A DNA stretch of 57,321 bases, filler included, from Sluysia triapertura (taxonomy: Eukaryota): NCBI GenBank assembly GCA_046118255.1. It is 4 parts of 4 records of this genome, joined end to end, with 100 filler letters (N's around TTAATTAATTAA, not from the genome) between each part and the next. Parts side by side here need not be neighbours in the genome. Positions count along the whole stretch, not along the records: positions 35,318 to 57,321 come from JBJNIA010236222.1; 3 more parts are not named here. One strand, 5' to 3'. The notes under the pieces were generated by a model. That model worked only from the letters and a program-made list of their open reading frames with translations, did not search any database and was not told the origin of the DNA. Below, in pieces: positions 16,636 through 57,321 of the stretch. Positions within the stretch are counted from its first letter, which is position 1, and every line of letters starts with the position of its first letter. A program made the position numbers and the translations under genes.

Positions 16636-17496
16636 TGTTAGGTTGTTATCACAACCCTATAAAATAATTAAAAAATGTCATAATGACACTTTAAAACTAT
16701 TGAAAAATATTTAAACCCATCAAAAATTAATTAAAAGCATACAAAACATTTTAAAACCATTTATTAATTTTTAAAATTACTTAAATAAGAAATTATTTTT
16801 CCAAAAAAGAAAATAAAATTTCTAAAATAGAAAATTAACTTTTAAAAAATACAATAGAAGCTTCTATAATGTTCTAGAATATTCGAGAACATTCCATCGA
16901 TTTTCACTGGATGATGACTAATATATAAACTAGCATCAATACAATGAAAATCGCCATTTGATGGTCGCATTTTGGAAATTGCAAATTCGTTAATTCTACG
17001 TGCAGTTCAAGATAATTGTGAATTTAGTAACTGTCACAATTTCGAGCTATTCGTCAATCAATATTGGATACTATCAATATTTGGTAAATTGTATATTTGT
17101 TAAGGTAGATTTTAACTTTTTGAAGTTAAACTCATAAATTCCACTTAAATTTCTCATTAATTTATGAAGTTTTTTAAGTCTCGATATATTGAGGGGTAAA
17201 CTCCACATTAACTTTATTAGTACTAGATTAAACGCTCACTGAGCTTTAATCTTTAAATTATTTATTTTATTCTTATAATCTATAGTCTTAAGTGATTTGA
17301 ATTTTATTGTTTTTAGAATTTTTTGTGTTTTTAATTAATATCCTCACAATTAATTTGTCAGTTAGAGACGTTACTATTTAAGTGATCTTTTAACTTATTA
17401 GTTATAGAAACACCCACTATACGTTGTAAGACATTTACTGTAACTAGACCCTGCTCAAAAATATTTTGCCGTAGGTTAAGAGTTAGAAAAACCACT
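16636..17496 (+). mobile_element. Solo-LTR-like repeat, copy A
   Basis: Begins TGTTAGGTTG..CACAACCCT. Shares blocks with copies B and C: GAAGCTTCT..AATGTTCTAGA, CATTCCATC.ATTTTCA, TGATGAC, AATCGCCATTT, CTCGATATA..GAGG, CGTTGTAAGAC, TTTTGCCGTAGGTT..AGAAAA.CAC. Confidence 0.8.
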
Positions 17497-21073: not shown

Positions 21074-21869
21074 CTGAAAATAATTATATTGTGTACATGT
21101 ATGCATAGCATGCAATAAAATTATATACTATTAATATTAAATTGTATCATTGCATATATGCATACATGTACTATTCTATATGTGGATATTTCAGTGTAAT
21201 ATATTAAGATACCAATAATTTCGCACTAGTAAATAGAAAATAAATATGAATGTATGTCAATTACATTAATAATAACATTACTTAACAATGTATAATATTC
21301 AGTAATTTTAACATTATTTAATATATAATATTCAGTAATTAACATTTTAATATTTTATAGAGTATATTAATAATTTAATAATCGTGGAATTCAAAATGGA
21401 GTGGTAAATAAGTTATTACTATTATATTACATTATAATATACATTATTCAAACTATAAAAATTAAAAAATTAAAAGTACAAAAAATTATTTTCAGTTTAA
21501 CATTTGTTACAATAAAAATTTGGTTTTGCTGCTATTATTATTATTTTGACATGAAATAAAATACAGATATATGATTTTATAATTACATGTACATACATTA
21601 CTATTTATAATTATAATTATTTGTAGAAATTATTATTACTAAAATTTATTTACCCAGAAAATTAAAATCAATTAAAATTTCTGTAGAAAATTATTCTGTT
21701 TATTTCATACTATTTATAATTATAATTATTATACTGAAATTATTTTGCTGCTATTTGTACCAATAAACCTGTAAAAATTATTATTATTATTATACTGAAT
21801 TTATTATTATTATTTTGGAATTGAATATAAAAAGACAATATTCTGTTTTAATCGTGCAATAACAAAAGT

Positions 21870-25171: not shown

Positions 25172-26001
25172 TGTTATCATCACGACCCTCTAAAATCACA
25201 AAATTTTTTAAAATTATTTATAATTTTCCAATAAAGAAATTTTTTTTCAAAAAAAAAATAAAATTTCTAAAAAAGAAAATTCATTTCTAAAAATAGAATA
25301 GAAGCTTCTGTAATGTTCTAGAGCATTCCATCTATTTTCATTTGCTGATGACGAGTATGTGAACTAGCATCACTTTAATGAAAATCGCCATTTTGAAAAC
25401 ATAATTCAATTTATTAGTAGTGAGCGCCATTTTGAATTTATTACTCGTCATTCTATTACATCAGCTTCTACAAGGATTGGAATTTTAATCAAGTGAATTC
25501 ATAGTAAAACATTCGTTTCAGTTTCATCTATTCCATGAAACGATAAATTATATTTTGGTGGTTTTCTTAAATCAGAATCACAAAATTTGATCATTGTATT
25601 GTAAGGACCTCGATATATAGAGGGGAAACTTTCAATTTAAATTGAAAAGAAAGAAGATTAGAGATCCCTAAAAGATTTTAATCTTAAAATAATATTCAAA
25701 GTTTTGTTTTTTGTTGTTTTTATTGTATAAATTTTGTATTTTGAATTCTAGTTATTTTTACTCCTGCATTTAGTTTAATATAATTAAAAGTAATTGGGTT
25801 TTTCCATTGTGATATTTAAAGTTTTAAGACCCTCTTAAAAATCATTAAGTTAGGAACATGCTAAACGTAATTTTTAAGTGATTATAGCGATATTATTAAT
25901 TTAAGATTATAGGAACACAAACTATACGTTGTAAGACGTTTATTGTAATCAGACCCTGCTCAATTTAATTTTGCCGTAGGTTTAGTTTCAAGAAAAACAC
26001 A
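25172..26001 (+). mobile_element. Solo-LTR-like repeat, copy B
   Basis: TGT...ACA termini and the same ordered blocks as copies A and C. Confidence 0.8.
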
Positions 26002-32060: not shown

Positions 32061-32879
32061 TGTTGGGTTGTCACCCTCTAAAATCATATTAAATGCTTTA
32101 AAATTATTTATACATCTCTAAAAACACAAAAAATATTTATTTTCCAAAAAGAAAATAAAATTTCTAAAAAAAGACAAAAATAGAACAGAGGCTTCTAGAA
32201 TGTTGTAGAACATTCCATCGATTTTCATTGGCTGATGACTAGTATATAAACTAGAATCAGTTTAATGAGAATCGCCATTTTGAAAACATAATTCAAATTA
32301 TCAGTCATCATGTGAAGTGCTTTATTGAATTTTTAAAAATTTGAAATTTTTTAGTTAATTAATTCAACATTTTCTTTATGCAACCAAGGATTTCTTCTCG
32401 TTCCAGTCTTTCCCATGAAATAGTAAACTTTTTATTGTAAGGCAATTTTGGTTTATTAAATCAGAATTTTAAAATAAACGTAAAATCTAAATTTTATCAT
32501 TTTACCGTAAGGATCTCGATATACTGAGGTCCCACAAAGATTTTAATCACAAAATAGCTATTCGATTTTTTGTTTTTTAGTCTTTAGAATAATTTTAATT
32601 ATTTTATAAATTTTGTTTTGAGTCTTGACTAATTTTAATGTTATATTTAATCAATATTTTAATAAACTTATTGTTGGTAAGTTTCTTGTTGTGTTACATA
32701 AATTGTAATGAAGACCCTCTTAGAAGTTACTATGTTAGAGACGTATTAAACGTGTCTTTTCGAGTAAATATAGTGAGATTATTAACTTAAAGATTCTAGA
32801 AACGTTGTGAGACGTTTACTGTTACCACACCTTACTAAATTTTGCATTTTGCCGTAGGTTTGGATTTAAGAAAACCACA
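32061..32879 (+). mobile_element. Solo-LTR-like repeat, copy C
   Basis: TGTTGGGTTG...AAAACCACA termini and the same blocks as copies A and B. Confidence 0.8.
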
Positions 32880-37338: not shown

Positions 37339-40300
37339 TCAACTATCTTCTTTTTGAGATGACCTGGGAGAAATTGACGAATAAAAACTGTTTGATTTCG
37401 ATTTCGACTTAGACTTTGAACATGATCGTGAATTAGATTTCGAGGACTTACTAGAATCAATCGATTTAGATCTACTGCGGGACTTTTGGCTTCTTTTGTA
37501 ATAATTTTTACCTCGTGATTTATCTTCTTCAATACGAATGTGAGAAGAGTGACCCTAAATGATAGGAAAGAGAACTTTGTTATTTTTATGGTCATATTTT
37601 CAAATTCCTGAAGTATCAACAATAATATAAAACACAATAATTACAAAATATTTTAGGTTTAATATTTGCATCTCGGAAATAAATTTTTTCAAAAGATTTC
37701 AAAAAAAACTTAACGAAATAGTGCCTCAACTTCAAATACGACATTTGGTCAGAAATAATACAGTCGAACTTCGGTTAATGAAGGCTTTTTGATTCGGTTT
37801 TTAAATATGAATTTTTTTAAAACGTTTCATTAATTCGTATGTTCTAAAATAAAACAACATACACGAAGGATCCTCACTAACGAGGTCCGCTAATAATTCA
37901 GAGAATAGTAATAGTCATTTATTATTTATTCTTTAATTAGTTAAACTCTAAAAGATTGTGTTTCTTTTGTATTTTTCAGGAAAAATTAAAATTTGATATG
38001 GTTTAAAAAAGTAAGTGACACAATGAAACAAAATAAATAATTTTACTATATATAAAAATGGAATCCGAATTCGATTTGTCAGACAAGTGAACAAATGTAA
38101 TTTAAAAAATAATTAAAGAAGCTTCAGTTGCGGCTACTTTTTAAATCGATTTTAAAGAAGTTCTTTAATTGAAGAAATGGAAAAGCTTCTGTTAATCTGC
38201 TTAAACCGGTTGAAATATAGTCACTCTCAATGCTTACCACGCCGCTATTATTTCAAAATTTCAATTATCCTAGACTCGAACTTCTAATAGATATAGGTAA
38301 AGTAGTGTCCGTAATCCCTAATACGTTATGCAAGAAAACATCACAACCAACACAATACTTAACAGCAGCTAATGGTTCATCGGTAGCGTTTTACGGATCC
38401 CATTTACCACAATTTAAGAAAAATTTTCAGTGTAATTTCGACATAGCTACAATCATCGACTCATACTAGGAGCCTCTTTCTTCGACCATTACAAAGTCCT
38501 GGTAGGCTGCAGGAACAAAACTTTAAAGGACAAATATCTCAAATAAATTTGGACCATGCTAGTGTAAATAAAGAAAACGTGATAACTTATAGTTAAATAA
38601 AATATCCAGATTTATTGAAAGAGTTTTCAGTATATCACAACTCAATTTCTGTCTATTTCATCAACACATTATTAACAGCACTTTGTAAATTACGACGTCG
38701 AGAGTTATCGCAAGGAGTTCGGGCGTAAGCTGAACAAGAATTCCTCGCTATGGAAAAGGGTTTGCGCGCCGATCTTCTTCCTCTTGGGCAATTAGGAACA
38801 ATTAGAACATGCGGTGACTATAGAATGTTAAATAAAGTCACAATTCTTGACGCATATCCAATGCCATTAAAACCCGATATCTTACATTGTTTTTCCGGCT
38901 GCTCAGTATTTTCGTCAATTGATCTGGCAGAAGCCTATCACCAAATCCCGATGCAATCCGAAGACTGCAGTAACTACACCTCTCGGTTTATTCGAATACA
39001 TGTGAATGCCGTTTACTCTTCGAACGGACCACATATTCTCTATGAAAAATCCTTCAATTTCGATAAAACATATCCCAGGACAGGAAAATGTGGTCACTGA
39101 CGCCTTGTCCCGAGTTGGAATCAACAGTATTGCATTCCAAACAATGTTCACGATCGAAGATTTAAAAGGTGATCCTCCTTCTGCAGAAGACTTATCTATG
39201 TTCAGCTCAACACTGATGACCTACAAAGGAGTTTATTTCGATCACCAATTGTCAGGATTTTGCGACCAATTTTAGGTTGATTTGATTTTATCCACAATCC
39301 AACGCAGTAAGGGGTAAAATCTACCCGTGAAGTACTAAAATCAAAGGTTATCTGGCTTTTATGCGGGATGTGAAACTCTGGACCAAATCATGCTTAACTT
39401 ACCAAGCAGTAAAGACCTATAAGCATACTAAGCCAGAGATTCTTCGACACCATGCATATGGACATTGTCGATCCATTACCGAATTCAAAAGGCTACCCAT
39501 ACATCCTGACAAATATCGACCGACATAACCGTTGGCCAGAGGCGTATCCTCTGTGTTCCATTCAACAGAGACAATATCTAATATCTTGGTAACACAATGG
39601 ATTTCGAGATTACCTATCAAGGCAGATAATTCGAATCAGAATTATTCAATAATTTATTAAAACTCGAGATTAAGAACCACAGCCTATCATCCTCAATCAA
39701 ATGGAATGATAGAACTTCACTCCGAGCCCTTTCAATCAAACTCAACTGGTTGAATGCGCTGCCTCTAACATCCCACCCTCTTCAATAGTATATTCTCCAG
39801 CTCAAATCGTTTTCCGTACTAATACTAGATTACCACACTAATTATTTGACATTCTCCCGGCATCTGCAAGACTATTTCAAAGAATTAGACAATACACCAG
39901 AACAATTTGATGTGGACTGAAAAAGTAAGTGACGCTGAAGCAGAATAAATAATTTTGTATATAAAAATGGAAAGTGAACAAATGTAATTTAAGGCAAAAA
40001 ATAATTAAATCTTCAGTTGCGGCTGCAGTGAGGACAATGATATATCGATTTCAACGAAGTTCTTTAATTGAAGAAATGGAAAAGCTTCTAATTATATGGA
40101 TAAATAAGCGTTAAATTTCTGCTGATTTTATGTCTTAAATTGGATCATTTGTAAAAATTTGAAGAAAAATATCAGCACCAAATAAAGCAAATAGAATTCA
40201 AATGGAAACGGAAGATAATGTAAAATTTAAAGTTTAATTAGATGTGGAGCCAGTTCAAATAAGAAAGATAATAAGAAATTTGTAATAGATCATTACTAAG

Positions 40301-43300
40301 TTTAATTGTGATTAGTGTGATTCTTTGGAAACTGAACAAATTTATAGAAATATATACCTATGAAAGATAGATTAACACTTATTTTGTCTAATGCAATGTT
40401 ACACCAATATGAGTCTGCCATTCTAAGGCATGAAGAATATTCAAAAAGTTGTTTTCGAACACTAAAACAACAATCTGTATCATCTACAACTGATCAGCAA
40501 AAAAAGGACAAATTCCAACTATTAAAGAGGTATAGCATGAATGATAATATTAATGCAACTTCAACTATAAAACTTTAAGTTTAGCTATTAGTGACAAAAA
40601 TTGAAGATAAAATATATTACTCGATTTTTATGGGAAATTAAATGATGCAAATTATAAACAAGAGCAAAAAGAAAATAATTTATAAGTTAACATTTTAAGG
40701 ATGAAGATGCAGTGGCAGTAAAAGTAGACATGCTTACTTGGAATTAGGTTTTGATTGGATTTTTGTGAAAACATAACGAAATTCAATTTAATACTCAACT
40801 TTTATATATCAAATATATGGTGTCACAAATGTTTATATAGGTTACAAAAATAAGCTTATATTAAACACATATGCTGTCTTGTTATTTTATGGTGATTTTA
40901 AATCGTGTTTAACTGATGACACAAACCTCTTTCGGCTGGTCTGTTAATTCTTCGACAATTACTAAAATTATAAATTATATCGTTGGCTTAATAAATCAAA
41001 GGATTGAGACAGAAATGTCAAAAAATATCTACTTTTATAATTTATAATTTGCAAAAACATTCAGAAACCAAAAATATTCTTATTTTTAACCTTAGAGACA
41101 TTTTATATTAACAAATAATTACAATAAATAATAACCATAATTATAAAATATAAACCAACACTAGCGGATTTAAATTTAATATTATTAACATATTTAATGA
41201 CGTATTTAAAATCTTCTTTAACTACAAAATCACAAACTCCGGTACCATTTGGAAATACATCTGAATAACTGACTTCACCATATCGTCTCATAAAATCTTT
41301 TAAATCTTGCCAATTGGTATTTGCTGGTAAATTGTATAATAATACGCGGTAGTCAGAATTTCGTGGCGGCCTAGGTCGTCGATTTGATCTAGAATGTGTC
41401 AATTAATTTGTTAGGTTATAGCACTTACCATCCTCATTTGAGGAAATATAATTATAATAAAATAAAATTATAAGATATTATCTACTTACTAAATTAAATA
41501 GATAATAATAACTAAACAATATATTTTAAAATATAAAAATAAAATTACTATTTTCAAATAATTACTTACTTACAAAAGTAAGTATTAAAGAAAAATTAAT
41601 TTTATTTTAGCATATAGAACGTGACACGATAGAAACTGGTATATATCACCTTCACAATATAGTTTCACTATTTATATTAATTGTAGCACCAATCAATAAT
41701 TCGTCACCATCTTGTTCTATTTGTTCCAACTATTTATATAATCTAGTAAGTTTAATTCAATTGTAAGGCGGTTTATATTAGTCGAAACATTTAAAATAGT
41801 ATTTGTAAGTTTATTTCCAGATTTAGTGAACACTAAAATCCTTATTAAAATTCATCTGTTATATATATTGCTGTCCTCACTACAATAAATCCACTTTTAT
41901 GATTTTTAATTAGATTTAATTATTCTTGAAATTATATTCATCTGTAACTTCTAAATTTTTGTATTGAAAATATTAAATACGTATATTTTGTGCATAATTT
42001 GGTGTAAATTAGTATCACACTATAAAATTTAATATCAACATTAAGTAGTGACTACTATTTAAAACAACTATTTGAAAATTATATAAGAAAATTTTAAGCA
42101 ACCTATCAAGGATTCGAAGTCAAAGTTAAGATAAATTCACATATTCATAATTGTAATTACAGACACGCTTATTGTACGTTTTAAGTCGACCGGACACTGC
42201 TAAAACTTATTTGATAGGCACAAACCATAGAAAATTTAATTGCAAAAATGTTGAAATTTTATTCGATATATATTAGATTTTGAATCGAATCATAATTATT
42301 TAATTATTATTAATTATTATCAGATCTTGCTTGTGAACTTGCCGGATGAATGTAAAGTCGTTATTAAATTTTATGAATGCTCTGCTCTAAACCATTTTGG
42401 AAACAAATAATGGTCAAATTCAAAAAGATTATTTAATAATTTCTTTGTTTTATCAATTATTATTAATAAATTATTAATTATTTCTTTGCTTAATTCTGTA
42501 AATGAGCTTAATCATAATAGCTTTATTTCTTTTATCTGACTACTATTTAGGTCAGAATAGATGAATTGGTAATCAGGAATGTATTCTAATTGAACTATAC
42601 CTTCAAAATTCCACCAAACACACAAATTATGACTTTTTAGACCAATATCGTCATTATCTCACCATTCTTTTTCACTTTCTTTGCTATGATAATATACTAT
42701 CCATTTTTCGTAACTTTTTTAAAACATTCAAATCATTTAAGCATTCCAACAAATATATAATCTTTTTCTTGGATTTTCATCGATATTTTGTGATATTTAT
42801 TAGTCTTTCCTGATACATTCGATAGAGATGTAAAGTTATAATTTTATATAAAAATTATTCATGTTTTACTATAACTTATTATTTATATTTTAATATTTTA
42901 TATTTTTATTTTTTATACTTTATGTGTTTTAGAAAGAATTAAAATATTATTAAAAATCACAAATTATTATAATTATAATTAAAAATTATAATAAAAAACT
43001 ACATCAAAAATTGGAATTGAAAAATTAAATTTAAGAAAAAGAATAATCTGGAAACTATTTGTGCTTTTATCAATCAAAAAATTAAATATGAGTCTTTATG
43101 TCAAAAATTAATATATAAATGGATATTATTAACAAAGACTTCACAGCAGACAAATAAAGCTCATAACAGAAAAATAAAGTTAACGCCATAATCGATAAAC
43201 AAAGGAAGATACCACAAAGAAGATAACGTTAACAGACAAATAAAGCATCATTATATTCGACAACAAATCTACTGCAAGTGTTTACATTAGATTAGCGCAA

Positions 43301-46300
43301 CACCCGACAACAGTTTCAACAGCAGCGGAATTCTATTGATTGTGGCCAACAATTTATATTTAAAAATTTCAATTAGTAAGTCTAATTTTTATAGATTGAA
43401 CTCGAATAGAGTCATAAAATCTTACGTAAAATATCCTATTCCCGTTGGTCCTTAAAGCCAATGATAAAATCATTTTTAAATTAATTAAAATTTCTAGCCG
43501 AGCCTCTAGTAGACTAGGTCTTTTTAAAATGAAAAATACTTTATTGTTATTATTATTATTTTTGATTATATTATTAAACTAATTGAATTTTTAGACATTT
43601 TGTTGTTAATTGAATATTTATTCTTACGTTAATATTGTTGTCATCTTAATATTTTTATAATAAATATTGAAGTGTTCATCATTTAATTTTGGATAATTGA
43701 ATATTTAGAGTATTGATTATTTAAGTAAATAATTTTCTAATAAGATAACGTTTAGCATAAGTGTATATTAAAGCACATTAGATTTTTAAAGATTTCAAAT
43801 ATACCAATAGAAAGGTTATTTGACAAAATAGTTTTATTGAAATAATCCACGTATTTCAACGAATTTTTTTATCTAATGATTTTTACTTTATTATTTCACG
43901 TATCTAGAGCCACGCCATTCGTAAGTCGTGTATTGTAGACGAACCTTTTTATTCCATTTTGCTGATTTAGTAAGGTTAAGATATTGTATGAATCACTAGG
44001 AACTGGATTTGTTTCAGCAAAGGTCTTTAGGTATCTAAATCTGTGATATCTAAGCGTGAAAATCTTTCTTTATCATTAAACTCTGAACATCAAAGCTTTC
44101 TACTTGCATATCAATCTACATTTACATTAAATAAATCATTTTGTATAATAATGTCGAAACAATTTATGTATTACAAGTTTCTATCTCTGTTTCAATTAAA
44201 TTAAATAATCAAAAAATATAAAATGCCATCTTTGAAATGATGTACTGTTTTTTTGATATTTTTCATGTTATATCAATTTAAAAATTGTATTTTAAAAAAA
44301 TACTCAATAATTTCTATATATGGAAAAACCCGATGTATTAGTCACAATTCTTGTTTAGTCATACGTATATTTCAGAATTATGAAACAACCAATTATTTTA
44401 AGGGGTGCATTTTATTTACAAGTTTAAGTTATTTAAAGTAAAAATTTGAAAATGTCTCCTAAAAATAGGATTAAATAGTCATTTCTTTAATATAGATAAT
44501 TTTTATCTAGATTATTATAGGATTGGTGTCTCTAATTCAGTTTTAAAGGTGAATAATAATTAAATAATTATTATAATGGAATTTCTGAAATGTCTATAGT
44601 TTAAATCTATTATGAAGTTTAAGACAATACTAATAATCATCAGGTAAAATTACGCTAGTATTCTAAATTTTAAGTAAAATGTTGAAATGAAAAATGATTC
44701 CATAATAAATAAAAATCTAGTATTCTTGTTTTTTTTATTGTTGTTCGATTTATTATATCAAAATCTGTTAAAAGCATTATTAAAACAAGAATGACCTACA
44801 TGTAAATTTATATACTATATATAAAGTACAATTAAAGATCCAGGAAAAGCACCAATTGATAACTAGACATTCTTTATGATTTAACCCTTACATACATGAT
44901 TTTTATTAGTCAAGAATTTACCTTTGAAACATTATCTATCAGTGGTTGACATTTAAATATTTTCGAGATAATAATATTCATAGCACCTTTATTTTTTTTA
45001 TCGAACTTTTACTGAATACAAATTATTGATATGTAGCCATTTATCTGTATGGATGTAACGTGTAATTTAAAGAGGTTATTACAAGGTTTAAAATGATAAC
45101 CAAATAATCTGTCCAAGTTAGAATATAAATTTTCTAATTTCTTTACTTTCTACATATAATAAATAAAAAATTGAAGTTTAAAATTTAATATTATGAAAAG
45201 AAATATCAAAATAAAATTTTTCATCACTCTTATAAAACTAGATTCACATTTATTTTTGGAGCATGACTCATGACCCTTTTAAACATAAATTAAATAATTC
45301 TCCTTAAATATTTTTTCTGTGACGCTACATAAAACGCATAATGCAGAAAACTACCAAACGCAAGATGTCCCATCAAAAATCTGTTTTCAAAAATGTTAAA
45401 TATTTATCCAAGGACTATAAATTAGTTGAGCTAGTTACCCGAAACATAACATCCCAACTAAAATATGCATCTCCTTTGCTACATTTCTTTAAGCCAAAGA
45501 ATACAATTGCTTAGATGATTGTGAAATGCATCAAACTTGATCAATTTTCGAGCTGCAGCCGCTACTTCAACGTGATGTTGATCATAATTAAATTCATCAC
45601 TCCTAATGCCACTTAATTCCTAATTCACTTTTAAAATTCACAATATTTCAATTTCCCTAATGTTTGTTCTACTTTCTTCCTGAATTATTCCAGGATCTCT
45701 TCTTCATCATTTTCAATTGCTTCCCATCCAGAGCGCAGCCGAATAATTGTTTATAAACGCAGTTTTAATTTTGTCACGTTTAACAACCATAATAAACCAA
45801 AAGTATGCTTAATTCATTATCACATTAGACCTTAACCTTCATTTAACCATTTAAGTCTATTTAATGCTTAATAAATAGCTCTTGGAAAACTTAATTTGGT
45901 TTTTTGTTTATACAATAAACTGTTATCAGGTAAAAATATCTAACATATCAAATTAAAAGTAAAAACAATGAAACAAACGTAAATCACAAGATTACAATAT
46001 TTTAAAAAAATTGTAAATTCCAAACGCTACAAAAAATTTTAGAACTGATAATACCAAAAATAATTATTCAGACAAACGTGAAACATAACTAGCTTACTAT
46101 TTAAAAATTGTACAAGATATCAAATTTACCTGTGTGACGCATTGTTAATCCAATATGAGAATATTGGTGACTAACATATTATTTACTAAAAGTGAAATAA
46201 TTATATAAAATGTTTAAAAACTGGTTCTTTTGACATTAGCCAATACATTCATATAATTGTGTCAAACATGTTTTCTCAACATTTTTTCTGAATCAACTGA

Positions 46301-47562
46301 TTGATTAAGAGTAATAACATTATCGACAACTTATTTAAATGTCAATAAATTTACATTGACAGCTCATTAAATTCACACAAATGCTTAAATATAATTTAAC
46401 ATAAATTAAGGACACAAATCGAAGATATAATTAGTTTATCATGTGCAACTAATAATTCTGAAGCAATTTAAACATTAAATTCAGATTTAGTAAGTGCCAG
46501 TGCATAATGATCCGTATCAAATTCATTGTATTTGAAATATATAAATTTTATTAAATATTAAGTAATATAAAACTTAATTTTAAATACTGAAAATTGCTCT
46601 AACGTTCATTCAATAAAATATTTTAAAATATTTACTTAATTGAATGTCAAAAACAACTGTATACACTTGAATAATTTCTCAGCTTAAATAAAATTGTATT
46701 TTTATGTTATATTAAATCAAATAATTCTTTTCATAAACAAAAAACTTAAATTACCGACCTATTATGTATAATAAACAAACCATAATAAATTCTTTATAAC
46801 CATTTTAACACCTCACGATTACTACCTATTATCGTCAAATAATATTATATCTATTAAAACGTATTATCAGATGTTTCTAAGCATTTCTCCAATTCATTTA
46901 AAAATATGCATGCTTGAGATACAATAACATATTTGGAATGGGAAACGTGATACAAAACAAGCATAGTATAAATAAGTCTAAAGCAAATTATTTATCGATA
47001 GAATTAAAATGTATGCATCTTTCTAATTTAATGTCGATATTAAAGTATATTAAAAATGAATTATTTACCTGAAATTAATGTTATTATGATTATGAAAACG
47101 AGCCATATTACGATAATCATTGTAATAAGCACCAGTAGATGGGTAATATCCAAATGGTGTTGGTATATACATTTCGTATGGTACAAAATGGCCACTATTA
47201 CTACTACTACCACCACTGCGTCTGTTATCTGAACCGTGATCAAACCTTGGATCTCTATTGTCATGACGACGTGAAGTATTTCTCTTAAGATCTCGAGGAA
47301 ATTCAACTCGCAAAGAAAATCCATCTAAATCATAACCATCACGATCACGTACAGCATCTTCAGCATCACTAAAATATTTATTTAATAAAACTTAATAGAA
47401 ACAAAACCGCTTATCATCAAATACTAAAAAAGCAAAAGGTGGTCCATTGCGATTTTTAATATCTATATCAACAATTTTTCCGAATGAATTGAATAATTTT
47501 TCTAAATCTTTTGTTGTCGTATCTGGGGGTAAATTACCAACGTAAATTTTTCTGTCAGACAT
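37339..47562 (-). CDS. SRSF1: SR splicing factor of the SRSF1(ASF/SF2)/SRSF9 family; exons 47562-47408, 47368-47069, 41388-41160, 37554-37339
   Basis: RRM1 reads [46 protein letters not shown]|[25 protein letters not shown]. The pseudo-RRM reads [29 protein letters not shown]. It continues KFKSAS|[11 protein letters not shown] into an RS/KS tail. All four exons are phase-consistent with GT-AG introns (39 nt, ~5.7 kb, ~3.6 kb). Confidence 0.93.
38006..38195 (+). mobile_element. pogo/Tigger transposase N-terminal fragment, copy 1
   Basis: [21 protein letters not shown] is the start of a CENP-B-type HTH. A TA|CAGTCGAACTTCG TIR-like end lies upstream at 37761. Confidence 0.55.
38230..39900 (+). 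mobile_element. Internally deleted Ty3/Gypsy pol remnant, antisense within SR intron 3
   Basis: Protease-like LLIDIG..LTAANGS; [21 protein letters not shown] and [15 protein letters not shown]; RNase H end [17 protein letters not shown]; integrase HMDIVDPLP and [14 protein letters not shown]. Many frameshifts. Confidence 0.9.
39920..40130 (+). mobile_element. pogo/Tigger transposase N-terminal fragment, copy 2
   Basis: Direct repeat of 38006-38190, extending to [20 protein letters not shown]. Confidence 0.6.
42480..42830 (-). mobile_element. Degenerate mariner catalytic-domain remnant in SR intron 2
   Basis: YEKWIVY (DEKW.Y motif) and KVII../[15 protein letters not shown] (VWW..G.V..E motif) in shifted frames. 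Confidence 0.7.
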
Positions 47563-48302
47563 ATTTAAATCAATTTAATTTTTATTGATATACTTTTTAA
47601 ATAGTAAATTAACTGTAGCAATACCGATGTTAGTCAGAAAATAATTTTTTAGATAAAATATCACAAGTAATATTGAGTTATAATAAATTTTAATGTTGTA
47701 ATTTATTATTTTACAAAAACTCACAATTTATTATAGGTTAATTTTTAAAAAATAACTCTCTATTATAGAATAATAATAATATATTAATTTATATTGCGCT
47801 CGTATCTACTGCGTAAGTACTCAAAAGCGCTTAAGGTAAGTCATTCACCATAATTTTATGAAACGGAAAGAAAAATGTCTTAAATATTTCATAATCTTAC
47901 AGTAATTTGACGTTCTCTGGTAACTGGTTGTATATTTGGAGACAAACGGATACACAACCTATCACCTATCTTGTTATCACTCTGGATTATCATGCCTCAA
48001 TGAAATATTCATCTTGGTTTCCAATTTTCGTATTATTTCTAAAAGATATCGGGGACTTCCGTAATGTAAGCATTTGTAAATTATTGTCATGATTTTGAAT
48101 TCTTTTCTTTCTTTTATTGGCAACCAATATAATTCTTTAAGATAAGGTGTTATATGACATCTTCCAACTTGGAGAATTAGTCTTTGTTAGGTTGTCATCA
48201 CAACCCTAACAAAAATGTCTTAATTGATTAAATTAAAAAATGGCCTACGCTCAGAGATAAGAGCTTATGTAAGTTTGATCGATAATTTAGCTTTTAAGGA
48301 TA

Positions 48303-49941
48303 TTGTTAAAAAATTATTGGGGCATCGAGAGATCTCGAGCCGAAGAAAAAGATAATATAAGTTACATAAGTGATAATTACGATAATTATAAAAATAGAAA
48401 CTTTAAGAAAATAGGGTCTCCAAGGTCTGAACAAAAGGTTATGAATTTCAATGATAGATATAATAATTTAGAATATGGAGCATTTAACTCAGTTAATCAT
48501 AGAGGAAATAATTTTAAGAGTAACAATTTTAATAGAGGCAATAATTATAGAACGAATAATTATGAAGATCCTGGTTGAACTGGAAATAATATTAATTATA
48601 GAGGAAATAACTATCAGGCCTCTAGAAATAATAACAATTTTGGTTTTAAGAGTAATAATAAGAACATAGGTTTTGGTGACTATGAACAAAGACCTTCACC
48701 AAGAAGGCAAAGTTATGCTAGTGAAAATTTTAATAGACAAAATAATAGTAATAACACTATACATAGGAGTCCTGTAAAGTTTAATAATATTAATAGTATC
48801 CTTAAGACTCAAACAAACATAAAGGGAAATGTAAAATGCAGTCATTATGCTAGGAATTTTAGGAAGTTAAGATCCAATAATTTTAATCAAAATCTTATTA
48901 AAGTGTAAGATTACACAAGTGGAGCAAGTTCTGATAGAAAAGTAAGGTTCAATGAAAGTAAGAATAAGAATAAGGGACAAATAAATTATAATTATAATAA
49001 AATACAAAATGATTACAATAATTATGATGAAGGTGCGTATGGAGATTACGATTATGGAGAAGAAGACTGTAGGAGAGAAGGATTATACTATTATAATAAC
49101 AATGGATTTATTAATGAATTTTCTAGAATAAAACTAGACGGTGATGATGATGATGATGATGAAAAGGAAGATAGATATAACAGACAGAAAGAAGAAGAAG
49201 ATGCATTCATACATTATATGTATGAATATTATCTTAATTATTTAAAACGAAAGGAAGAGTTAAAAGATAAGGAGTTCGGGAATAAAAAGATTACATCTAC
49301 GATAAATAATAAAAACAAATAGATAATGATAGTGACAGTTCAAATTTAACATCAGATGAAAATACCGATACCGATTCGATTATAACTGAGAAAAATGATT
49401 CAAATAATAGTACCGAATAGATACAACACATACAGAATCACCAACAAGTGATTATCCCGAAACAAGTTCGACAATAAGTGAAGCTGAAAGTTCGAGTATA
49501 AGTGAATGTAAAAATTTAAATACAAGTGAAGATATTAATTCGAACGTAAGTGACGAAGTCAGTGTAGAAAGTGAACGTGAAGCGGAACCAATAATAGTAT
49601 CTGTCAACGAAGAGAAGAAAATAAGTGCACCAGAATTAAATACAAATAAAGAAGTTATTACATTCCTTCTAGGTTTAAGTCAAGACTTACTAGATACAGA
49701 AAATATCGAAAATGATTTAGAAAATTTATATAAATCGAACTTAAGTTTGCAAGATGGTCATAAAATTAAGTCTAACTTAGTTGCATTAAGTAGAGGAAAT
49801 AGTCATAAAGGTAAGGCACGAAAGATATTAAAGAAAATTGCATTATTAGTGAGAACCGAAACACCAAAAGCCTTAATGAATGTTAATGATGCAATAAATA
49901 TAATAATGGAACTACCTGAGTTAAGGAAGTTATGGAGTTAA
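48303..49941 (+). pseudogene. Putative gag-region ORF remnant (N/R/G-rich NYRGNN repeats, then acidic and S/E-rich tracts)
   Basis: Purine-rich, coding-like strand with in-frame stops and frameshifts, upstream of pol. No CCHC knuckle recognised. Confidence 0.45.
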
Positions 49942-51289
49942 TTAAAATAAATGATCCTAATTCTACTTTTGTAACTTTGTGTTTTCATGATAGAAATTTG
50001 GCGCCCGATGAATTTTAGTGAGTATGATTACCCTCTTGGAATTGTTGTGTCTTTAATACTTTTATTTTACAAATTATTAATCAAAACTCAATAACTAAAC
50101 AAATTCTTTGAATAATCATAAAATTATAATTAAAAGATATAAATTATTCTTTATGACAACGACAATACAAAATACACGTTATAACACTTTATAACAGTAT
50201 TTTTTATAACAGTATTATTTTTTATAACAACGTAAAAAACCAGGGGTGATACAACTTAAATCTTTGCTCCCGTATTAATGCAAAATATACTCAATAAAAT
50301 ACTAACCCTAGGTCCTCTAACTCTAAATATTTATGTTGATATCACCGTTAACCACAGATGTATCAAACATGGTCCCTCAGCTAGAAAGTTTTAGTAACTC
50401 AAATCTAATTTATATCTCTGTCGTTTATCTCTAATATTATGAAACTGCATATGCATCAGTTTTATGATGCTGTAGGAAATTAAAATCAAGAATTGAACAA
50501 GATGGAAATTAAAGCTGTCTTTTCTCTTTTAGTCGGCAATAAGCCGACTAATTTTACTGATTGAATTTCGGCAGCAATTTCCGTCTATGTTCATATTCAA
50601 TCTAATTTTAATTATCTAATGATTATAGGATTATCTTCTTAACATCACCTAATCAAAATTTAAAATCATTGTTACATTGCTATTATACCAAGAACGTAAT
50701 TTGTCAACTTAATCTGAAAATAAAATTTATAAAATAAATAAATAAATAAAATAAAATTTATAAAATAATAAATCCATTTCTCACAGGAGTATTTTTCATT
50801 AATATGTTTAAAACCTTTCAAAGTATCACCCGATAATTGTAGGGATGCATTTGAAACTGGTTAAATAAACTTAAATAAAAGAGATAAGTTAAGAATAAAG
50901 GATAATGAAAAAATAATTTACAATGTAAGGACTTCAAGGAATGTATTACTAGATGGAACATGTGAAAGAGGTTCCATAGAATATGAAGGTAAAATATATC
51001 ATATTGTAGTTGCACAAGAAACCTACGTAGTAAATCTAAAATCTTTTAATGAGAGTTTTGATATAGAAAAATGCACTATGATGTCACGTTCTTTTTGTAA
51101 GATAGATCAGACTAACTGTGATACAGGGGAATAAATATTACTCTACGAATTAAATAAATTTCAGTGACCGTTAATATTTTTAAAAGAAATTAATCTTAAT
51201 CTTGTATCGGGATTTGTATTTCAGAACGATTAAGATAAAGAAAATTTAGAAAGACAAAGACTGAAAGAAGTAGAAACAACTGCGATTCT

Positions 51290-54200
51290 ATGGCAAATAT
51301 GGAAGAAGATGGTTTAATATTTATGTCAAAAAATATAGAGACGAATTACCAAGGAATTCCTCAAATATTTTCTGTTGTAGGAATATATAAGATATCAGGT
51401 TTAACCTGGCGTTTAATCATAGGATGTTTCCCTTTCTTAGCTAAATATTTACTTCGTCGCCACGCAAATTCTCAGATAAACGTGTTAAAGAAGGAGCTCA
51501 CACAAGTTAATATACAAAACACAAATGCGAATCAAAATAACGAAATTCAAGAAGAAAACATGGAAGATATTGAAGAAATTAAAGAAGAACCAAATGAAAA
51601 TTGTATCCAATTCCTCCAACGTCACAGCCCAAGAATGATTTGCGCAAACTATTATGGTGCGAAACGGTCAATGGTTAAAATTAGAATTTATGGCATAATA
51701 ATGTCAGCTTTAATTGACACAGGAGCAGTAGCCTACCTAATAAACGAATCTTTCTTAATAAGTGAAGAACTTCAAAATTTAAAGGACCATTTTGTGAGTT
51801 AGGAAAAAATAAGTTTGAAATAAAATTAAGAGTTACGAAAAATTGTCCTGAAGATATGATTTTAGGTTTGGATGTATTATCACAATTAATGGAGTCGTAT
51901 TAGATTTTGATAAGGCGAAATTGATGGACAGCTATACAAACCATACAATAGATGATAATGATGTATTGTGGATGAATCATTTTGGTTATTAAGCAGGGTA
52001 GAATACTTTACTCCAGGAAAAACAAATAGCTTACTAACAGGTTCCATAATGTTTATTGCACCGGAGCTCAATCAAGAGAAATTAGTTATAAGAATTGCAG
52101 ATTCTATTTGTAACCTTTGCGAAGGTAGGATCCCCATAAGAATCATTAACTATTCTAAAGAAGATAAGTGTATATATGTGTGAACAAAATTAGGAAGAGT
52201 CGTAAACTATAAAGTTGAGTCTCATATTAAGCGAAAACAGAGTACAGTTAAATTACAGCTAAATATTGATGAGGATTACGAAGATATAAGAATTAATAAC
52301 AAGAATTTAACGAGAAAACAAATAGAAAAATTATATGCAGTAATCAGAAAATACCCTCATGATATTTCTCGTAATAAATATGATTTAGGAGATTCGGTAA
52401 TAATAAAACATGAAATACCACTAACCGAAGATAAAGTTATTCGTAAAAAACCAATATTACCGAATACCAATGTGCAATCAAGAACAAATAGAAACGATGA
52501 AAAGGCAGATATTATAAGACCAAGCTTTTCTTCATTCTCCTCACCTGTTCTTTTTCGTTACTCAGAATAGACAAGATGTTAGATAAATTACGAAACGCGT
52601 TGGATTTACAAAGTGGATGCTGACAGATATAAATAGCTGAAAAGGATAAACACAAAACTGCTTTTATTTGTGGAGATAAAGTGTACAAATGTGAAAAAAT
52701 GCCGATTGGTTTGGCAGAAGCACCGGCAACATTCTAACGCTGTATGAATTTCGTCCTTTCGGGTTGTAAGAATATAATGGTTTATATTGATGACATTATA
52801 ATCTTTTCGAAGGATTTTGACACATATGTTGCCAACACAGAAAATATTCTAAGAAGATTACAAGCTGCTGGATTAAAAGTTAAACCAACTAAATGTGTAC
52901 GGGAACAAGAGCAAGTAGAATTTCTTGAACACATCTTATGGAAGATTGGATCAGACCAAATTCACGGAACATTGAAAAAGTGGTTAAGTTTCCTCAACTG
53001 ATAATATTAAGAAAGTACAAAGTTTCTTAGATTTAGCTAATACTACCGTAGATTTTGCTAAAATTTCACACCCGCTAAGAATTTTAACTAAAAAAGATGT
53101 TGAGTTCAAATGGACAGATGCACAGTTAACAACCGCATCAATTTTATTCTTTCCTGATATTAACAAACCTTTTATTTTAACTACTGATGCAAGTAATTAT
53201 GCAATAGGCGCAATATTAGGTCAAAAAGATAGAAATAATTTCGAAGGAGTAATAGCATGCGCTAGTAGAATACTAAAAAAACAGAAATGAATTACTCAAC
53301 AATATGAAGAGAGTGTTTAGGAATAGCATTATGATTGTAAATTATTTCGTCATTACTTGTTAGGACAAAAAGTATTCCTGTACACTGACTATAAGCCACT
53401 AACTTACTTGTAAATCATAGAGACGAAGTAAGTAGATAAAATAGGTTTAATAAGTTATCCGAATTCGATATAGATATAATCTATAAACGCGGAACTCTCA
53501 ATAATGATGCAGATTACATGTCTCGATTGACGAGTGTTGACGAAGATGGTAATATAAATTTTATTGATATCACGAATATTTCGGGTAAGGCTGAATATCC
53601 TAAAGAAATATCCTAAACTGGCTGAAAATTAACAATAATAGATGGAGTTTTGAGATTTAAGAATTCGAAAGATCAATGGAGAACTTTAATTCCAAAATTT
53701 AATTCTAGGACTTTAACTGTACTACTCATTCAATTTCACGATGGACAATTAGGTGGTCACCTTTCCCATAGAAAAAAAGATAAAAGATAAATATTATTGG
53801 GATGGAATGGAAGAAATGGTGCAATGATTTTACTGTTTGTTACAGAAGAAAAAATGCAGATGTTAAAACAAAGGTACCACTTAAACCAATGCCTGTACCA
53901 TTATCACCAATGGAATTTATAGCTATGAATATAATAGATCCATAACAGAAACAGTGGCGGGGAATAAGTATATCATAGTTTTGGCGGATTACTTAACTAA
54001 ATATCCAATGCCTAATCAAAAGGCCGAAATTAGTTGAGAAAATTATATATAGATATGGAGCTCCAAGGAAATTATTAACAGACCAATGTACAAATTTTAC
54101 AAGTGAAGTCATTAAATCAATTGCTAAAATATTTAACATATTAAGGACCTATACATCCCCAAACCATCTGCAAACTGACGTTCTTGTCTAAAGATTTAAT

Positions 54201-54789
54201 AGAACTTTAACTAACATGCTTCAATCATATGTAAATGATAGGCAAACCGACTGGGAATTGTATATCCTCCATGTTTGTTCGCTTATAGAATTTCTGTACA
54301 TCCTGCTACTAACTTTAAGCCTTTTATTTAATGTACGGTAGACATTCAAATATGCAAGTAGACTTAGATTGGATGCCACCAACTTCACAGTATTTAGAAA
54401 TTCCCGATTATGTTATAGTTATGCGCAAAAATCCAGAAAATGCTTGGAAACGCGCTGGTTTACAAAAAAGATATTCTCAGGAATCATACAAGGATACGTA
54501 CGACAAGAAAGCTAAGGATCAAAATTTTAAGGTAGGAGATAAAGTTTTAATAGATTATCCTTTAACAAAACCCGGTCACTCTCCTAAACTTCATAAACCT
54601 TTTAAAGGACCGTACGAAGTCACTAAAACAACTTCAAATAATTTATGTGTTAAGGAACCGAATAAAATAAACTCTGAGACATTTGTGGTTCATGTAAATC
54701 GATGTAAATTAACGTCAAATAATGAATACAATTTAAGAAATAGGAAAATCACAAAAACAGTATTGAAAGTAATACCTAAAAAAAGATAA
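51290..54789 (+). pseudogene. pol: pol polyprotein remnant (protease, RT, RNase H, integrase with GPY/F)
   Basis: ALIDTGA (DTG at 51716-51724) and MILGLD; MPIGLAEAPATF and YIDDIII (52783-52794); LTTDASNYAIGAILGQ (~53180); FHDGQLGGHL (~53735); LLTDQCTNF; FKGPYEV and VHVNRCK. Confidence 0.93.
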
Positions 54790-55223
54790 AGACAAACCAC
54801 ATGTTATTTCCTCGTCAGTGAACAAACAAATAATAATGATGATAAAATCTTCATTAAATTTAAATTTAATTAATCATATATAACACAAAACGTTCAAATT
54901 AACCGAAGATAGATTAGAGCCGTTATTGATACTGGTGCCAGTAACTCTATCGTTAATACAATATGTTGACTACTTTAGAAGTTTCTATGATGCATCAACC
55001 AGCACTAACTGTCTATTGTGTCAACAATATTCCCACTGACATAAACGGGGCATTACAATGTCAAATTACGATTTTATATACGAATGTTTGTGTTCCGATA
55101 CTAGTATGTCCTTATGAAATATTTATCGATTTGGATGTGATCAAACATTTAGAGGATATAGTAATTCATAGTAGGCACGGATTTGTGAAATTACCAATAG
55201 GCTCGCGTATAATTTTATCATAA
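54790..55223 (+). pseudogene. Second retropepsin-like aspartic protease domain downstream of integrase
   Basis: In the integrase frame it reads VQINRR*IRAVIDTGASNSIVN (DTG at 54928-54936). After a frameshift it continues in ORF 54963..55223 to YEIFIDLDVIKHL (ILG.D-like). Confidence 0.75.
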
Positions 55224-55297
55224 GTGGTTCTTTCGTCTATAGGCGTTCAACCTAATCCAACACAACAAGTTTATAGCACCACACATTAGTCCACATC

Positions 55298-56449
55298 ATG
55301 TCATCTACACCAGACTTGAAATCCGAATCTTCATCCGATAGTATAGATAACTCAGACGTAACATCACTTTCTTCCGAAAATGAAACCTACCATCCCAATG
55401 TAATGCTCGTTTCAACACGTAGTAGAGATACAACATTCAGGATAAAATCACTCTCTGTTTTAAGATTGCTTTTCTTAATTCTGCTATTATGTATTAGAAT
55501 CACGGGTTTTACATATGTAGATGAAATCGAAAAGGAAATGCGCAATACTAGAAATGCATTACGATATAGTGTTGAACAAACATTTATGCTTAAGAATTTT
55601 TATAACTAATATTGGCCGATAAATCCTATGTTAAAATTCCCCAGACATTCATCGTTATCTCATTGAGTTTATTTCAAACCATTACTGATAAGAAAACCGT
55701 ATACACTCTACAACAGCTCTTAATGTCTGCATTATGCTAACAGATCCGTGCCAATAACACTTGCTTTAGTAGATGATAGAGGTAAATCTGTTGAAAAGTT
55801 TTATCAATCTATCAGTAATCATGCAATTGTGACTAATGATACAAACAAATCTCGAGACATTTTTACGACATCTAGTAAAATTTTTGAAATTAACTCTTTA
55901 CCAGAATATAAGTCACTAGGTAAGATCACATTACTATTACTAGTTTTTACTGTTTGTTACACATTATACTACATCTTCATCTTTAGGCGAAATGAGAGAT
56001 TATTCATTAATAAAAAATTGCTACTTTTATTAGCTTTGATCATAATGATTTCATCAGCTAACAGTGAACACACTTTTAGGTCGGAATATTTCGAATTCCA
56101 TAATTTAGATAGTGAAATAAGAGTTAAGTTTTTGGATAATAATATTCGTGCAAAATTTACTTGTCTTCGACCGGCGAGACTTAATTGGAGCTTTTGGATA
56201 ATTCATGAGCTACTTATAAATAATGTAATACATTTTTTTACGATTTGTTCAGATATACTATCAAGTGAAGATAGACACATGATTGCTCGAATTCATTTAA
56301 ACCGTAAATGCGTAGAAGAGTTGCATTTTTCATTTAAGGGAAGGAATACAAAGACCAATATCATAGAAAGTCTCAATAACCATCAATTTGCAATATTTTT
56401 TATGGTCTTTACAGTAATAATCATTCTAGTATTAATAATCTTTTTTTAG
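55298..56449 (+). pseudogene. env-position membrane polyprotein (ORFs 55298..55609 and 55748..56449 are in the same frame, separated by three stops)
   Basis: Four hydrophobic segments: LRLLFLILLLCIRITG, ITLLLLVFTVCYTLYYIFIF, KKLLLLLALIIMISSANS and FAIFFMVFTVIIILVLIIFF. Confidence 0.6.
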
Positions 56450-57120
56450 TAGTCTGTCTTTTCACTCGATACAGAAATGTTTCTTCCAATTTTCATTCTA
56501 ATACAGATAATGGTCATTATTCGATACCTTATCATTATGATTCTTCATTTTAAAATCAATTCTTTTATAATTAAAAGTTTGCAGATGCTTTAAAAGGTTT
56601 TCAGATATTTTTAAGATATTTAAATATAAAATTTATTCAAGAGAAGATATCAAAGTTTTTAAAAGAAAAGATTTATTTAAAATTGTAATCTACATCACAT
56701 AATTTACAAGATTTTTCTTTTGGACATTTAATTGTATCGTTAGTTTTATTCTTTATAAGATTAGCAATACTTAAAATTGCGTTAATAAAATCCAGATTAA
56801 AACATTTCATTAAGATAGCTCAGTAAAATCATTTATTTAAAATATAAAAAAAGTAAAATATAAAGAATAATCTATTAAAACTATTTATCATTTTATTTAT
56901 AAAATTTTGTTATCGTTTTTTATCAAGTTGTATACCTTTTGTATTTAATATACCTTCATAGTTTAAAGTATTTTTAATTAATCAAAAATAAATATACTTT
57001 CTTTTAAGATGTCTTATAAGAAACCTCAATAAATTTTCGATAATAATTATAAACTTAGAAAATTGATTTGTATAAGTTAGGAATAATAACGTTAAAAAAA
57101 GAAAGAACAAAAACATTAAT

Positions 57121-57164
<44 letters not shown>

Positions 57165-57321
57165 TGATATCTTCTTCCAACTTGGAGAGTTAGTCTTGCT
57201 GCTTGATTAATTATTAATTGTAATTTTTTCACTTTTCTATCTGAAATTGTTAAAATCTATGTTGCTAGTTATCAATGAGTGAACAATAAGTTTAGCTGTT
57301 TCTTTATTAATAAATTTTCGA

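Follow-up and report, generated by a model that had tools for sequence, protein, structure and literature searches.

As a rule, LTR retrotransposons and retroviruses have one protease, upstream of reverse transcriptase (RT), and at most one surface protein. A sequence-only reading of a Ty3/Gypsy element in an assembly of Sluysia triapertura reported a second retropepsin behind the integrase (IN), followed by a membrane protein of about 384 codons with four hydrophobic segments. Do these parts belong to the element, and what would a second protease do in this position? We approached the question through the whole stretch of DNA analysed (57,321 nucleotides, filler included; hereafter the window) and through relatives of the element in protein collections.

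The window is AT-rich and eukaryotic, with a GC content of 18-38% per kb, and the host is presumably an animal. Pfam and tblastn place a decayed pol at ~51.7-54.8 kb on the plus strand, in the order PR, RT, RNase H, IN (Table 1). Alignment to the intact relative P0128 gives 14 frameshifts and 6 stops across ~2.2 kb of pol (8 and 5 in RT/RNase H, 6 and 1 in the integrase). The window element is a dead copy, and its worth is that of a pointer to its clade. A gag capsid HMM detected no capsid in the window; the capsid is present in ten listed full-length relatives. The open frame at 49411..49941 has no meaningful Pfam match, and the helical and ubiquitin-like block of relatives does not match it. 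The short motif downstream of this frame resembles a tRNA-Lys primer-binding site. No ankyrin, ubiquitin/SUMO-like, BCL2, BIR or MATH cargo was found in the window.

Host features in the window include an SRSF1-like gene at 47065-47574 (-), with a first intron of ~39 nt and an RRM confirmed by Pfam, and an exon with ankyrin repeats at 20628-21083 (-), which we take to be ANKZF1-like. A decayed Gypsy fragment with RT and IN pieces, unrelated to the main element, lies at 38729-39714, and scattered repeats of 200-370 nt with 68-80% identity occur at 16732-16959, 25185-25418, 32073-32305 and other places. The stretch 47977-48186 (-) is presumably the RT end of a CR1/L2-type LINE, which it resembles by eye; 25 nt of it recur at 57173-57197 beside a (TAA)n tract. 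This 25-nt repeat (48160/57173) was rejected as an LTR because it sits, by eye, inside the LINE-like fragment. No LTR pair was found in positions 40000-57321 of the window, which stops 870 nt past the membrane ORF, or in the relatives' loci L001-L003, whose contigs end near the ORFs.

Table 1. Features of the window element, in order along the plus strand.
Feature	Position	Strand	Evidence
Possible gag C-terminal N/R-rich region, stop-broken	48291..49322	+	Weak low-complexity tblastn, best E 8e-6; tentative
176-codon open frame, putative accessory-domain position of relatives	49411..49941	+	Open frame; tentative
10-nt primer-binding-site-like motif, adjoining no LTR	49999..50008	+	Pattern scan
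Env remnant, N-terminal part (class III, Monjiviricetes-like fusion glycoprotein)	50811..51293	+	Env HMM and PF24664
Env remnant, C-terminal membrane-proximal part	51359..51541	+	Env HMM positions 606-667, 46.8 bits; tblastn E 1e-8
PR1, pre-RT retropepsin, frameshifted, internal deletion	51671..51891	+	PR HMM positions 3-41 and 69-96; Pfam RVP E 0.028
PR-RT spacer domain common to relatives	51965..52519	+	tblastn E down to 1e-17
RT and RNase H, decayed	52549..53410	+	Pfam RVT_1 E 3e-17, RT_RNaseH_2 E 3e-19
Integrase with C-terminal GPY/F-type tail, decayed	53650..54789	+	tblastn to relatives; weak Pfam rve, Integrase_p58_C
PR2 N-half, DTG active-site motif intact, IN frame	54889..54963	+	PR HMM positions 5-29, 20.2 bits
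PR2 C-half, frame other than that of IN	54966..55151	+	PR HMM positions 31-95, 7.7 bits; colinear with N-half
Broken membrane-protein ORF	55298..56449	+	Hydropathy, shuffles
H1 of membrane ORF, signal-like, after polar linker	55451-55507	+	Hydropathy; signal reading by eye
H2 of membrane ORF, TM, after ectodomain 1 and before short basic loop	55925-55981	+	Hydropathy
H3 of membrane ORF, signal-like, before ectodomain 2	56000-56056	+	Hydropathy; signal reading by eye
H4 of membrane ORF, C-terminal TM	56387-56443	+	Hydropathy

The second retropepsin (PR2) is real. Past three in-frame stops, the C-terminal IN frame (54319-54789) reaches the active-site segment of a retropepsin, as the sequence-only reading had noted when it placed IN and protease in one frame. 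This holds for the N-half of PR2, but not for the C-half, which is the part that the reading quoted; the membrane ORF lies in the third frame. With an X at the break, the full domain scores 48.8 bits, a value reached by none of 300 shuffles of the C-half (maximum 30.8). Profile matches in both halves, taken with this shuffle control, therefore identify PR2 as the remnant of a full-length retropepsin. As judged from its sequence, it retains the hydrophobic-D[TS]G motif, the full 95-residue domain and a C-terminal hydrophobic-G-x-D-like motif, with one frameshift. Pfam protease families matched it (gag-asp_proteas, E 9.9e-5; Asp_protease, E 3.3e-4; others ranging to 4e-3), all below their gathering cut-offs. 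A PDB search with the N-half returned DDI1 and HIV proteases at E 0.08-1; armadillo repeats at the top of that search were rejected as a repeat artefact. When the IN tail and PR2 N-half were compared with longer proteins, the matches were three bivalve pols, aligned over the IN part only, and scans of viral contigs with the IN tail and with env found nothing.

Relatives were collected in searches with the window RT (best 120 of 137 matches) and with the IN+PR region of a relative (best 120 of 1522 matches). Together with the matches of the search with the IN tail and PR2 N-half, 234 RT-bearing proteins were pooled, and 213 of them entered an RT-RNase H-IN tree; the 21 left out had no IN, had IN before RT, or carried two RTs. 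Among the matches listed, 22 relatives share a clade in which the window is nested (FastTree support 0.997). In a shortened UFBoot run the nested clades of 23, 22 and 21 tips obtained 98, 100 and 99, and the placement of the window inside the clade was weak (67-70). The clade relatives are proteins from metagenome assemblies; one of them, P0134, is labelled as a hypothetical protein of a Flavobacteriaceae MAG, a label that probably reflects eukaryotic contamination of a bacterial bin.

Membership in Ty3/Gypsy is supported by the pol order PR-RT-RNase H-IN and by the nesting of the window among Gypsy-type pols in the trees. The GAG-ENV-POL type, to which the nematode ERVs described in Sacco et al. 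2022 reportedly belong, is likewise supported: a class III env lies between gag and pol in 15 of the 22 listed relatives and, as a remnant, in the window. The canonical errantivirus arrangement, a fusogenic env 3' of the integrase, is not seen here, as the fusogen remnant lies 5' of PR1. Its N-terminal part matches positions 122-282 of the relatives' env HMM (100 bits, iE 1.7e-30) and Pfam PF24664 (Monjiviricetes_fusion; E 2.5e-5, below cut-off), and ~320 residues are deleted between its two parts. The idea that the post-IN membrane ORF is the env of the element has to be given up, since the fusogen is found upstream of pol instead (50811-51541; 100 and 47 bits); the post-IN ORF is therefore a second membrane protein and not the fusogen.

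The architecture at the 3' end is a common trait of the clade. A protease after IN occurs in 10/22 listed relatives versus 0/191 other pols listed, two proteases before RT in 10/22 versus 2/191, and a hydrophobic segment after IN in 20/22 versus 6/191. In all ten relatives with a post-IN protease, IN and PR form one open ORF, which bears out the earlier suggestion of an ancestral element with a second protease behind IN and then a membrane protein. In 15/22 listed relatives an env with PF24664 precedes pol within one ORF; the count of 0/191 for env outside the clade is an artefact of the clade-built profile, as P0160 and P0163, both outside the clade, carry PF24664. Full-length relatives read gag-env-TM-PR-PR-RT-RH-IN-PR-signal-ectodomain-TM. 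A single gag-env-pol polyprotein with a mononegavirus-like env is seen in P0125, P0127-P0131, P0133, P0135, P0136 and P0171, and the broken window copy is consistent with it. Seven listed relatives carry three proteases, arranged as env-TM-PR-PR-RT-RH-IN-PR, and signal-ectodomain-TM then follows in six of them. The distance from PR2 to the first hydrophobic segment is 99 codons in the window and 43-133 codons in eight of the nine relatives that have one; the exception is P0126 (535 codons, with ankyrins between).

The relatives also carry varied cargo. Ankyrin repeats occur in 3/22 listed relatives, and ubiquitin-like domains give weak Pfam matches in 2/22. P0006 has three proteases after IN, placed around ankyrin repeats. 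BIR, MATH and BCL2 domains, which are further cargo of Burro/GYPSM1, were found by Pfam in 0/22; a BCL2-like stretch in P0133 was seen by eye only. A conserved helical domain and a ubiquitin-like domain lie between gag and env in P0010, P0012, P0125, P0127-P0131 and P0133, and occur as two or three repeats in P0130 and P0131. In P0010 and P0012, C2H2 zinc fingers separate the two pre-RT proteases. The 3426-codon ORF L001:2-10279 reads env-PR-PR-signal-FN3-TM-PR-RT-IN-signal-FN3-FN3-TM, with three predicted surface proteins in one chain. ORFs behind the polyprotein at L001:10617-12104 and L002:12085-13470 match the RNase_T (DEDD) exonuclease family (E 1.4e-5 and 1.1e-3) and recall the DEDDy ORF3s of rotifers; another, L003:9958-11778, is in frame after the polyprotein stop and has no Pfam match.

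The membrane ORF of the window is coding by its stop density, and the four hydrophobic segments described earlier are all present. Over its 383 codons the frame 55298-56449 contains 3 stops, compared with 36 and 47 in the other frames, and none of 2000 shuffles produced a 241-codon open frame or as few as three stops. The three stops are confined to 39 codons (chance 0.027), a stretch across which another frame stays open (chance 0.005 per frame). Because the stops cluster and the other frame is open there, the damage probably consists of two offsetting frameshifts rather than three point stops. Domestication, which an apparent lack of frameshifts had suggested, was dropped once these were found. 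By eye, the layout is signal-ectodomain-TM-short basic loop-signal-ectodomain-TM, and most glycosylation sequons fall in predicted lumenal parts.

Homology searches with this ORF gave no matches among 1.84 billion representatives, a best Atlas score of 0.85 without a family, no match in viral contigs and no fusogen match. No fibronectin type III (FN3) domain was matched by an FN3 profile or hhalign, and blastp found no match to the fetched proteins or loci of relatives. A Pfam match to Orf78 (E 3e-4) was rejected, being below cut-off and lying over hydrophobic segments. Kinship of the linker and signal to those of relatives was rejected as well (at best 1/300 shuffles, in 2 of 20 comparisons). 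A single-sequence AF2 model of the window ectodomain was uninformative (pLDDT 44). Since there is neither an FN3-profile match nor any other sequence match, the tie of the window ORF to the relatives' module is one of position and hydrophobic layout only.

In the relatives, the second surface protein can be characterized further. In 14/22 listed relatives the ectodomain contains a unit of 95 residues and two cysteines, in one to three copies (24 clear units, by profile scores that include the seed sequences). One such unit was modelled by AF2 as all beta with a pLDDT of 92.8; its top Foldseek matches are fibronectin and Dscam FN3 domains (E 4e-4, TM about 0.6), and weak PDB profile matches and an Atlas fn3 score of 0.90 agree. 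By this model, the post-IN ectodomain of these 14 relatives is fibronectin-type-III-like. P0135, P0136 and P0137 have a short Cys-rich unit unrelated to FN3, and other tails are unique. L001 carries an extra PR-signal-FN3-TM between env and main PR in addition to the signal-FN3-FN3-TM after IN; the presence of the FN3 cassette at two positions indicates that it moves. Given the predicted FN3 folds and the rapid replacement of ectodomains, the most plausible role of the second surface protein would be in attachment or host interaction.

To compare the proteases, we defined domains located post-env or post-IN as extra and RT-proximal domains as main. Leave-kin-out HMMs assigned 22/22 extra and 19/19 main domains correctly, some with margins of ~2 bits. 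PR2 of the window scored 48.8 as extra and 40.5 as main; PR1 scored 46.6 against 45.9 and was given no class. D[TS]G is kept in 21/22 extra domains, the one dead copy being in P0006. The trees suggested as a check agree in part: the RT-RNase H-IN clade stands at UFBoot 98, but the PR tree splits extra from main domains weakly (88/44), with post-env and post-IN copies intermixed. In 6/6 pairs, which are not independent, the post-IN protease is better conserved than the linker and ectodomain; in 6/6 pairs, again not independent, it is less conserved than the main protease. Distant post-IN copies share 24-36% identity. At the level of sequence, the extra proteases form a class separate from the main PR. 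The membrane module occurs in eleven listed relatives that lack a post-IN protease, and in P0012 the reverse holds, a post-IN protease with no module; given these eleven, PR2 is not obligatory.

We favour, as the likeliest account and with some reserve, that the locus is the 3' end of a dead, Burro-like, env-bearing Ty3/Gypsy element in which extra proteases freed Pol and the second surface protein was exchangeable. The single polyprotein of intact relatives would span the membrane repeatedly. Gag and accessory domains come first, then an internal signal peptide and class III Env with its TM; cytosolic extra PR, main PR, RT, RNase H, IN and a further extra PR would follow, and after these a second internal signal peptide, the second surface protein and its TM. 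Signal peptidase would cut at the internal signal peptides and release both surface proteins. The Env TM and the second signal peptide would hold the two ends of the Pol block at the membrane, and the extra proteases, one near each anchor, would cut it loose. Retropepsins act as dimers, and the extra domains may alternatively raise the local concentration of protease dimers within one chain. The sequence-only reading had suggested that PR2 perhaps processes the membrane protein. PR2 is predicted to be cytosolic; by this topology the linker ahead of the first hydrophobic segment is all that it would be able to cut, and it would be unable to split the two lumenal subunits of the membrane ORF. 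The second membrane protein would be an exchangeable accessory surface protein, of which the window has a two-unit version without known relative.

Other explanations concern, in part, whether the pieces belong together at all. From its sub-threshold Pfam matches and from the second Gypsy fragment at 38729-39714, PR2 might be suspected to be a piece of some other, nested retroelement or a motif that arose by chance. Single tblastn HSPs run from the IN tail into PR2 for four relatives (P0006, P0008, P0010 and P0126), and the spacing from IN core to PR agrees (184 codons in the window, 156-185 in relatives); these observations remove the nested-fragment explanation. Both PR2 halves are significant, and neither an RT nor an LTR, by which a nested element might have been recognized, is seen after PR2, so that this explanation is largely refuted and has hardly any probability left. 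It is also very improbable, if somewhat less so, that PR2 derives from the element and the membrane ORF is unrelated DNA, such as a host gene fragment or other insertion. The ORF has no homology to the tail of any relative, has fewer apparent frameshifts (perhaps 2 in 1.15 kb, versus 14 in ~2.2 kb of pol) and is less A-rich than pol. Yet it is intron-free, lies on the same strand, begins ~50 codons past PR2 and has the PR-to-signal distance and polar linker of relatives, whose own tails are mutually unrelated (among those listed, FN3 in 14/22, a Cys-rich unit in three, others unique).

If the pieces do belong together, the extra proteases could still be redundant passengers, PR modules duplicated or shuffled in a plastic polyprotein, weakly selected and often lost. 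The post-IN protease is absent from 12/22 listed relatives, no extra PR was detected in 9/22 (some of these start mid-element), copy number and position vary, the P0006 copy is dead, and extra proteases diverge faster than the main one. We nevertheless regard this as unlikely: the catalytic motif is kept in 21/22 copies despite only 24-36% identity between distant post-IN copies, the extra domains form a coherent class across distant subclades, IN-PR spacing is conserved and the domain is better conserved than its flanks. Less probable again, though not negligible, is that they target host proteins of immunity or apoptosis rather than the polyprotein. Such a role would suit relatives with ankyrin repeats (3/22 listed), weak ubiquitin-like domains (2/22 listed) and downstream DEDD-type exonuclease ORFs (L001, L002), as well as the cargo of Burro, which accessible portions of two papers tie to apoptosis control (PMC6431247; PMC13465017); against it, the extra proteases repeatedly adjoin membrane anchors.

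The backbone of the element is known. Burro/GYPSM1 is a giant Gypsy of planarians, over 30 kb in size and with long LTRs. It has env in frame between gag and pol in one giant polyprotein, and according to the accessible description it shares with the clade an env resembling mononegavirus fusion proteins, a CCHC gag and a domain between PR and RT, which is dUTPase-like in Burro; its ubiquitin/SUMO-like domain and ankyrin repeats may have counterparts in a few relatives (PMC6431247). Unlike the relatives here, it is described there with one protease and without a post-IN protease or FN3 membrane protein; by description, its ORFs are also longer (4873-5140 aa, versus up to 4057 aa in relatives) (PMC6431247). 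The 'ancient errantiviruses' of GAG-ENV-POL type from Nematoda, Bryozoa and Platyhelminthes likewise have a class III (HSV/gB-type) env ahead of a Ty3/Gypsy pol; in the main text, which uses the word 'protease' once, no extra proteases or second membrane protein are described (PMC13524379).

Partial parallels exist for the tail. The Vesta and Juno elements of bdelloid rotifers carry a small TM ORF3 or a DEDDy ORF3 behind pol, and thus similarly exchangeable membrane or exonuclease cargo; in the available account this is a separate ORF3 (PMC5408684), whereas here the membrane protein is fused after IN via a protease and an internal signal peptide and stands alongside env. The sORF2 of the Drosophila MDG1 group is also an accessory transmembrane protein of an LTR element, described in the accessible text as serving cell-to-cell spread; it is short and replaces Env (PMC11952523), while here a larger ectodomain protein accompanies Env. 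The accessible portions of PMC11410931, PMC13465017, PMC8532177 and PMC13238120 hold no domain-order information. No description of multi-protease or FN3 tails was found in the literature searched; key papers lie outside it, and an earlier mention is possible. The architecture was rightly called unusual as regards its extra proteases and the membrane module behind IN, which we did not find described, but not as regards its gag-env-pol backbone, which is known from Burro and the GAG-ENV-POL errantiviruses. A more far-reaching interpretation, which we put forward tentatively and would not yet expect to hold, is that the clade is an undescribed lineage of invertebrate ERVs that may divide entry between two surface proteins, one a class III fusogen, the other a quickly replaced FN3-type attachment protein, with all parts encoded in one multi-spanning chain and a dedicated second class of retropepsins for Pol release at the membrane anchors, the window being a dead member with an orphan module of two subunits.

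The clade keeps two or three retropepsins per open polyprotein, one of them behind the integrase, and a surface protein besides Env. This raises the question of how processing works, and early self-cutting is avoided, when one polyprotein yields Gag, Env and Pol in equal amounts, and also whether separate attachment and fusion proteins exist in invertebrate retroelements. For annotation it is a warning that a TM ORF after integrase is not necessarily env.
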